Shown here piece after piece: positions 58,907 through 60,042 of a DNA stretch of 64,000 nt. A model generated the notes under the pieces. That model was given only the letters and a program-made list of their open reading frames with translations. It did not search any database and had not been told where the DNA came from. Numbering within the stretch: position 1 is the stretch's first letter; every line of letters starts with the position of its first letter. Source of the DNA: Schmidtea nova (taxonomy: Eukaryota); NCBI GenBank assembly GCA_044892505.1, contig CM097882.1, positions 123,752,001-123,816,000 on the forward strand. Reading direction: 5' to 3'. A program made the translations under genes and the position numbers.

Positions 58907-59061
58907 ATGAGTCATCGCAGAAATAAAGGAAATGACGTCATCGATGAGTCACCCATACCCCCTCCCCGGATGACTCATAAATGACGTCATCGATGACTCA
59001 TCGATGACGTCATCGATGACTCATTTCAAATTTGAATTTTATGACGTCATCGATGACTCAT
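58907..59061. promoter_or_regulatory. Cluster of 4 CRE (ATGACGTCAT) and 6 AP-1 (TGA(C/G)TCA) sites
   Basis: CRE at 58932, 58981, 59004, 59041; AP-1 at 58907, 58944, 58970, 58993, 59016, 59053. Confidence 0.75.
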
Positions 59062-59120
59062 TTCAAATTTTAAATTTAAATTCCCAAGGGTCCAATAAGG
59101 TCAGACCTTCAAACAAGGGT

Positions 59121-59810
59121 ATCATTCGAAAGGTCTTTTAAAGGTCTATCCAATGGTCATACCCTCGAAGGTGTATGGAGGGTCCTTAACCTTCAAGGGG
59201 TCAAAAACCTTCAACCTTTTACAATCCTTATATTATACATATCATTCGAAAGGTATTTGAGAGGTAAGTAAGATGGTCATACCCTCGAAGGTGTATGGAG
59301 GATCCTTAACCTTCAAGGGGTCAAAAACCTTCAACCTTTTACAATCCTTATATTATACATATCATTCGAAAGGTATTTGAGAGGTAAGTAAGATGGTCAT
59401 ACCCTCGAAGGTGTATGGAGGATCCTTAACCTTCAAGGGGTCAAAAACCTTCAACCTTTTACAATCCTTATAATATACATATCAAACAAAAGGTAATTGG
59501 GAGGTAAGTAAGATGGTCATACCCTCGAAGGTGTATGGAGGATCCTTAACCTTCAAGGGGTCAAAAACCTTCAACCTTTTACAATCCTTATATTATACAT
59601 ATCAAACAAAAGGTATTTGAGAGGTAAGTAAGATGGTCATACCCTCGAAGGTGTATGGAGGATCCTTAACCTTCAAGGGGTCAAAAACCTTCAACCTTTT
59701 TCAATCCTTATAATATACATATCAAACAAAAGGTAATTGAAGGGTGCACACAATGGTCATACCCTCGAAGATGTGTGGATGGTGCTCAACCTTCAAAGGG
59801 TTCAAAACAA
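59121..59810. repeat. 120-bp tandem repeat, about 5.7 copies
   Basis: Exact 120-nt period (e.g. 59241 vs 59361). Confidence 0.95.
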
Positions 59811-59864
59811 GGAAATAAAGGTAAGTACGGTTTTCTTAATGACTCATAGGTAAGATTTATTTGG

Positions 59865-60042
59865 ATGACTCATTGGTATGACTCATCAGTATGACTCATC
59901 AGTATGACTCATTGGTATGACTCATCAGTATGACTCATCAGTATGACTCATCAGTATGACTCATCAGTATGACTCATCAGTATGACTCATCAGTATGACT
60001 CATCAGTATGCCTCATCAGTATGACTCATCAGTATGACTCAT
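59865..60042. promoter_or_regulatory. 13-bp tandem array of AP-1 sites (ATGACTCATCAGT x14)
   Basis: 13 of 14 units carry a perfect ATGACTCAT; one more site at 59839. Confidence 0.85.

Follow-up and report, generated by a model that had tools for sequence, protein, structure and literature searches.

Terminal repeats and host-factor sites in related systems

Maverick/Polinton elements (adintoviruses) carry TIRs of 46-1,447 bp (PMC8097293; PMC8502044), which in vertebrate Mavericks end in (AGT)2 or (AG)3 (PMC8097293). For mid-size linear viruses related to them, a figure legend lists TBP-like genes (PMC8502044). The available parts of these two accounts describe no factor-binding arrays in the TIRs (PMC8097293; PMC8502044), and those of a report on repeats derived from the C. 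elegans Polinton TIR mention only putative factor sites (PMC11414722). In the main texts of mostly open-access papers, no description of an AP-1/CRE array in a Maverick TIR was found.

The baculovirus hrs, found in a nuclear DNA virus of invertebrates, are tandem repeats in which CRE and TRE/AP-1 motifs cluster; these clusters recruit bZIP factors of the host (PMC13513840). They consist of dispersed units of ~72 bp built around 30-bp EcoRI palindromes and work with the viral IE1 protein. Landais et al. 2006 (Virology 344:421) is reportedly the source on their CRE/TRE motifs. The enhancer strength of an hr correlates with how many CRE and TRE motifs it contains, a number that reaches 14 per hr (PMC13513840).

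In HTLV-1, HCMV and polyomavirus control regions, viral transcription is tied to signalling in the host by bZIP sites present in multiple copies. The 21-bp CRE repeats of HTLV-1 and the major immediate-early enhancer of HCMV are viral enhancers built from repeats. AP-1 is also involved in polyomavirus control regions, and the control regions of both adenovirus and polyomavirus are reportedly connected with immune and stress pathways by host AP-1, ATF2 and CREB (bioRxiv 10.1101/2025.07.20.665756). Adenovirus ITRs begin with a short core origin, after which come sites for host factors, Sp1 and ATF among them (PMC5717082), and the left-end region of adenovirus is strongly active in reporter assays (PMC5717082; bioRxiv 10.1101/2025.07.20.665756).

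The window analysed here, a stretch of 64,000 nucleotides, contains the left end of a Polinton/Maverick element. Its non-coding end of 1.45 kb is made of tandem repeats throughout (11/23, 37, 120, 13, 30 and 61 bp), forming five stacked motif arrays, two of which are blocks of bZIP sites. As in the hrs, CRE/TRE motifs are clustered in tandem repeats (compare Table 2 of PMC13513840). In contrast to the hrs, the sites of the element are terminal, mostly of AP-1 rather than CRE-like type and consensus-perfect, and the EcoRI sequence GAATTC does not occur in 58887-60340, so that the hr palindrome is lacking. The element end is therefore not an hr, although by analogy it may work like one. The ITRs of HAdV-B measure ~135 bp and contain NFI, Oct-1, Sp1 and ATF sites, whereas the element carries 24 bZIP sites in tandem arrays over 1.15 kb and is integrated; NFI, Oct and Sp1 consensus patterns had no match in 58887-60340. 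The HTLV-1, HCMV and polyomavirus regions belong to vertebrate viruses, have a tested function, contain fewer AP-1 sites and are unrelated in sequence. Since bZIP clusters in viral repeats are known from baculoviruses and adenoviruses, what is new at this locus is their place, density and copy number, not the type of mechanism.

The left end of the element and its copies

The terminus was located from contig depth and from alignments of public sequencing runs.

58887-58906, plus strand: left terminus, starting AGTAGA; the first 20 bp are free of bZIP sites and are a candidate core origin or integrase site

Contigs from four public runs were aligned to 58300-59272. Three runs (X1-X3) come from organism A; the fourth (X5), a soil-metagenome run that contains 0.21 of the words and aligned at low depth to nothing but the element, was excluded as habitat evidence. 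Of the five runs listed as carrying the sequence, none was an RNA run. In X1-X3 a single flank contig with a depth of 46.5, 9.1 and 5.9, respectively, gives way to depths of 1e4-1e5 in the bin containing 58887; for X1, depth rises from ~46 in the flank contig to 1.4e5-6e5 in bins 58861-58926. This step at 58887 is present in all three organism A runs, the increase at the element start is more than thousandfold, and depth peaks at ~1e6 in the 120-bp unit, the maximum of the aligned stretch in X1-X3. The unique flank contigs of X1 and X2 show no differences up to 58911, where they end, and a further contig of X1 (record 3) aligns from 58886 and is preceded by 28 other letters, that is, by a different flank. 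Taken with the depth step, these contigs place the element start at 58887. The step in 3/3 runs and the contig with another flank also reveal that copies are dispersed over different sites of insertion. At four terminal positions the contig depths add up to 1.8e3 to 1.9e5 times the depth of the flank contig, a ratio that is not a copy number, and the element end is very highly repeated in the genome.

The first letters, AGTAGA, agree with (AGT)2 at five of six bases. With described Mavericks/Polintons the element shares an A32 ATPase, probably an AG-type end and, in its relatives, an integrase, a C5 protease and a DNA polymerase. The sequence-only reading had called the region a Polinton terminus, which is borne out by the end at 58887, by the ATPase and by the Maverick gene order around the relatives of this ATPase. 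Exact terminal patterns had no match in IMG/VR, no phage record matched the element end and no Rfam family was detected in 58800-60500.

Some observations concern variation among copies. In each organism A run 33-56 contigs begin at 58987-58993, and the sequence upstream of this point is mixed (agreement ~0.5), as would be expected if subfamilies differ in their first 100 bp; the loose ends of these contigs contain ATGAC. The summed depth of the 120-bp unit (59153-59807) is ~13-23 times that of position 58923, above what 5.4 copies explain. This excess may reflect longer arrays in other copies, or a unit existing apart from the end. The CpG observed/expected ratio is 0.68 in the end region versus 0.92 in the flank.

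Two blocks of bZIP sites

The bZIP sites of the element end fall into two blocks.

58907-59061, no strand: terminal bZIP block with six AP-1-type and four CRE-type sites; six of nine neighbour spacings are 11.5 bp centre to centre
59839-60044, no strand: second bZIP block, a solo AP-1 site at 59839 followed by a 13-bp x 13.8 array with an intact ATGACTCAT in 13 of 14 units

About 20 AP-1 and four CRE sites had been claimed for 1.15 kb, and the recount gave exactly 20 and four. The pattern TGA(C/G)TCA occurs 27 times in the window, 20 of these within 58907-60042, against a shuffle mean of 7.2 for the window, and 27 occurrences were reached in none of 100 shuffles. All four occurrences of TGACGTCA in the window (shuffle mean 0.55) lie in the same interval. 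The extended form ATGA(C/G)TCAT is found in 19 of the 20 AP-1 sites, and every CRE site reads ATGACGTCAT. Ten sites lie at 58907-59061 and 14 at 59839-60042, separated by 786 bp between the nearest site centres with no site inside. The first begins at element base 21. In 58907-59061, ten sites compare with 0.07 expected (0/2000 shuffles); six of them lie in the 117 bp ahead of a 37-bp duplication, also against 0.07 expected and 0/2000 shuffles, in a stretch that has a short 11/23-bp repeat of its own. The second block had been described as an array of 14 AP-1 units of 13 bp. The array is real (13.8 copies, 95% matches), but it contributes 13 of the 24 sites: the core is lost in the unit at 60008, and the fourteenth site is the solo one at 59839. 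The shuffle tests overstate the enrichment because tandem copies are not independent: most of the 24 sites are such copies and cannot each be counted as a separate event.

The 24 cores are embedded in 14 distinct pairs of 5+5-base flanks, with about eight unrelated 5' flanks. The three core forms (TGACTCA, TGAGTCA and the CRE form) have only the inverted ATGA half-site in common, arranged as a 7-bp form in either orientation or as an 8-bp form. AP-1 and CRE sites differ by the spacing of their half-sites. Core edges are the optimal A/T ones, with an A before 24/24 cores and a T after 23/24. Unrelated flanks, AP-1 as well as CRE spacing and optimal edges together point to a bZIP-dimer site as the repeated unit, judging from sequence. 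The earlier assignment to AP-1 and CREB/ATF is upheld by this anatomy. No ARE/MARE extension (TGA(C/G)nnnGC or TGCTGA) was matched in 58887-60340, and the sites are therefore of the Jun/Fos/ATF type and not of the Nrf2/Maf type.

Random 13-bp units taken from the host flank contained a core in 59 of 57,884 cases (0.1%), and in the element two blocks with different spacers contain it. A triple AP-1 pattern gave five stretches in only three contigs of IMG/VR, with 3-4 copies each, all short repeats inside ORFs without similarity to the element. A pair of CRE and AP-1 sites was found there in eight loci, seven with at most two sites per 1.2 kb and one with five.

Variation among copies was used to ask whether cores are preferentially kept, as the sequence-only reading would have it. 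All six substitutions in 58887-59062 among those listed (40 of 79) fall in spacers, cores making up 94 of the 176 bases. The bias has P 0.009, or P 0.10 when the changes are counted as three clusters. It is weak support, because contigs with diverged cores may fail to align and the substitutions listed are partial. At 59009, 42-49 contigs per run have lost one base, which makes an AP-1 form of the CRE form there; in X1-X3 they account for 12-16% of depth, and this variant may represent AP-1 units aligned onto the CRE position.

Other motif arrays of the non-coding end

Three further arrays complete the non-coding end.

59081-59807, no strand: lead-in and 120-bp x 5.4 array, without bZIP sites, rich in AAGGT/ACCTT and GGTCA
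60054-60152, no strand: 30-bp x 3.3 array containing the motifs AACAAAG and T(T)GCAA
60218-60337, no strand: 61-bp x 2 repeat with four ACGCGCGT palindromes, the probable inner end of the non-coding terminal region

The 120-bp array proper (59153-59807) has 94% matches. AAGGT/ACCTT occurs 31 times in 59081-59830, with five per unit against 0.53 expected (0/2000 shuffles); these motifs and GGTCA resemble nuclear-receptor half-sites. Between units, two of 16 variable columns fall in the 54 motif columns (P 0.004), a result that is not counted as the motifs were picked post hoc. In 60054-60152, AACAAAG is present four times against 0.08 expected and TGCAA/TTGCA eight times against 2.2, both values being inflated by the repeat itself; the former is presumably Sox/TCF-like and T(T)GCAA presumably C/EBP-like. 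The palindromes of the 61-bp repeat are, we assume, E2F/MCB-like. Heat-shock, NF-kB, p53 half-site, DRE and ARE patterns gave no match in 58887-60340. A single origin hairpin was considered for the terminal block and rejected: the block folds far more stably than shuffles (z -8.9), but its ensemble is diffuse, the centroid being almost empty and the MFE frequency 0.0016.

Genes of the element and promoter classes

Inward of the non-coding end, four leftward genes are followed by the packaging ATPase.

60602-60964, minus strand: accessory ORF of 120 aa with a hydrophobic N-terminus and a Cys-rich segment; no Pfam match
61030-61374, minus strand: accessory ORF of 114 aa, with tblastn matches in 8 of 63 loci; no Pfam match
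62015-62570, minus strand: accessory gene of ~160 aa; no Pfam match
62764-63238, minus strand: TBP-like gene (PF00352, E 1.3e-6), head to head with the ATPase gene
63328-63951, plus strand: A32-type packaging ATPase (PF04665, E 8.3e-7, above cut-off)
63292-63298 and 63937, plus strand: TATAAAC boxes, the first 36 bp ahead of the ATPase start, the second ahead of the next ORF

The 120-aa ORF is 56% identical over 34 aa to an ORF at 2622-3446 of the window. The ~160-aa gene probably has a short 5' intron, as read from GT..AG, and its upstream region contains two CCAAT boxes and one AP-1 site (62767). The TBP-like gene is present here as two overlapping ORFs with one frame change near 62,920 (a frameshift or an assembly error) and is intact (144-161 aa) in loci L005, L014, L019 and L021. 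It has 13 homologues, 12 of them of 148-180 aa, and was found in 14/63 loci. For the ATPase 578 homologues were retrieved, the best at 87%; in IMG/VR a search with it gave no match and then two weak loci, which were not used.

Metagenome loci encoding relatives of the ATPase, 61 in number, gave access to the gene content and promoters of the clade. The longer ones carry the ATPase, a small ORF, an rve integrase, two capsid-sized ORFs, a C5 protease and, encoded on the opposite strand, a DNA polymerase; rve(+chromo), Peptidase_C5 and DNA polymerase occur in relatives whose ATPase is 63-75% identical. In the copy analysed here the corresponding positions fall outside the window. 'MCP-like', 'minor-capsid-like' and 'PW-like' are labels by position and size only: the capsid-like ORFs had no profile match and the PW-like ORF only a sub-threshold DUF. 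TATAAAC was searched from -90 to +45 of the first ATG in loci L001-L029, L036, L059 and the window, against a background of 1,376 in 17,554 windows of 135 nt (7.8%). It was present for the ATPase in 22/24 cases, for the PW-like gene in 18/20 and for the MCP-like gene in 7/8, at a distance of ~35 nt before these genes; for the minor-capsid-like gene and the integrase it was present in 5/12 and 2/19. The same interval held no TATAAAC in TBP-like (0/14), orf114-like (0/6) and polymerase (0/1) genes, and none stands ahead of the four leftward genes of the window. This distribution shows two promoter classes in the clade.

Arrays and cargo of related loci

Across 59 related loci (193,580 bases; L060-L063, as weak matches, were left out of motif counts), the number of sites never exceeded two AP-1 or two CRE per locus. 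This is not a fair test for arrays because no locus reaches a recognisable end. Locus L021 starts (1-380) in a 14-bp x 17.4 array, 4.1 kb ahead of its ATPase and hence in a comparable place, whose unit differs from the bZIP unit and is followed by only one ATGAGTCAT. L009 contains a 21-bp x 14.1 array with TTGCAAT (737-1032), and L001 a 64-bp x 2 duplication with a CRE and a TATA-like box (1345-1473) ahead of a TRAF-like gene. It seems that the clade tends to form arrays of short motifs while exchanging the motif itself. No array is present in the 547 bp that precede the polymerase of L019.

An element-encoded bZIP factor was also considered; none was found in the partial relatives, where 238 ORFs from 31 loci contained no basic region of bZIP type and 30 representative ORFs included no bZIP family.

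Some relatives carry signalling cargo, namely a TRAF-like protein, dual-specificity phosphatases, a ubiquitin-conjugating enzyme and a RING protein (L001:190-2732; L005:222-719; L016:952-1263; L023:82-576). Phosphatase cargo, if its specificity is of the MAPK type, or TRAF cargo would be in keeping with engagement of JNK/AP-1 signalling by the clade. Polymerase-sized ORFs in L005 (10209-13865) and L019 (9122-12391) contain an endonuclease VII-like segment.

Predicted function of the terminal arrays

On a slight balance of probability, the element end is a modular terminal viral enhancer through which host bZIP factors activate early genes, the TBP-like gene among them. The two blocks would be bound by host dimers of the Jun/Fos/ATF/CREB type, and their sites, multiplied by slippage, would have been retained as more sites bring more host RNA polymerase II activity. 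The region is predicted to act as an orientation-independent enhancer on genes without a TATAAAC box; here its targets would be the TBP-like gene and the accessory genes read leftward, and the opposite end, which lies outside the window, would probably act on the polymerase. The array, toward which the leftward genes are oriented, lies 3' of them and 3.3 kb from the TBP/ATPase promoter, and it must therefore act at a distance. The box-less class would be early and dependent on host activators recruited to the terminal arrays, and the TBP-like protein could then serve the TATAAAC-box genes (ATPase, PW-like, MCP-like). The combination of terminal arrays, a TBP-like gene and the TATAAAC box suggests an early/late cascade. 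Counting against the enhancer reading are this position of the array, the unit without core, a bZIP array met with in this family only (none in the 59 related loci, which stop short of an end) and the L019 polymerase with its array-free upstream region.

A switch gated by a particular signal is more doubtful; stress, wounding, proliferation and the germ line are candidates for that signal. In a switch of the stress or wounding kind, bZIP dimers activated by JNK/MAPK or cAMP would load on the arrays after wounding or stress and turn on the early genes and the element's own TBP, which would lead to the virion genes with a TATAAAC box; the numerous dispersed ends would form a large bZIP-responsive compartment of the host genome. 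Stress sensing (JNK, wound) is, by analogy, plausible as one possibility among several, because AP-1/ATF factors also act in proliferating and differentiating cells. The region had further been termed a 'super-enhancer'. A super-enhancer is recognised by exceptional Mediator/H3K27ac occupancy over an enhancer cluster. This is a chromatin definition which sequence alone cannot meet, and the term is premature here. Particles of animal Mavericks have not been observed (PMC8097293), and consensus host-factor arrays point to the host pathway that may exert control. Were the signal-gated switch true, it would name a host trigger for an animal Maverick.

Slippage could also have built the repeats neutrally: an AP-1 site or two, present by chance or with a weak function, would have been amplified with the other arrays, so that copy number is meaningless. 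The whole end is indeed built of tandem repeats, 13 of 24 sites sit in one 95%-matching array, the arrays of relatives use other units (14 bp x 17.4 in L021, 21 bp x 14.1 in L009), and factor names can be fitted post hoc to many short motifs. However, slippage copies flanks along with cores and does not easily produce a half-site that recurs in unrelated flanks, with two spacings, in both orientations and with optimal edges, which makes this account unlikely. A role in replication or packaging, in which bZIP dimers or an element protein bind just inward of a 20-bp core origin and assist protein-primed initiation in the way of adenovirus NFI and Oct-1, would explain why the first site stands at element base 21, directly after a site-free 20-bp end and where the auxiliary-origin factor sites of adenovirus lie. 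It has precedents in the adenovirus ITR, whose core origin has next to it sites at which host factors stimulate replication (PMC5717082), and in the baculovirus hrs, which are origins and enhancers both (PMC13513840). It can coexist with the enhancer reading, but it leaves the second block, ~950 bp inside, unexplained, the terminal block forms no single hairpin, and the ORFs of the related, partial loci include no bZIP-like protein; we hold it to be quite unlikely as the main function.

An effect on the host, with many dispersed copies serving as bZIP enhancers of host genes or titrating bZIP factors, is the purpose of the array with very low probability. The terminal depth of 1.8e3 to 1.9e5 times the flank contig (not a copy number) would suit it, as would a Raf-like RBD/C1 ORF 9 kb away. 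Yet the sites are integral to the element end and travel with the element, the Raf-like ORF stops in frame with no kinase domain seen after it, and no sign of fixation or host benefit was found. The host is nevertheless likely to be affected as a by-product, whatever the array exists for.

Other features of the window

The Raf-like ORF with RBD and C1 lies at 48996-49844 on the plus strand. At 115-4105, also on the plus strand, four intronless A-rich ORFs (515, 191, 274 and 203 aa) have no Pfam match above cut-off; the 274-aa ORF has a Cys-rich 34-aa segment in common with the 120-aa ORF of the Polinton. They are followed by long inverted repeats (4334-4835 and 8558-9059, 96%), and the 115-4105 region is possibly another mobile element or a misassembly. 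A 550-bp element at 55440-55990, with TTAA-flanked inverted ends starting CCCTTT, is presumably piggyBac-like. Broken ORFs at 56574-57272 on the minus strand resemble a remnant of a Helitron/PIF1 helicase.
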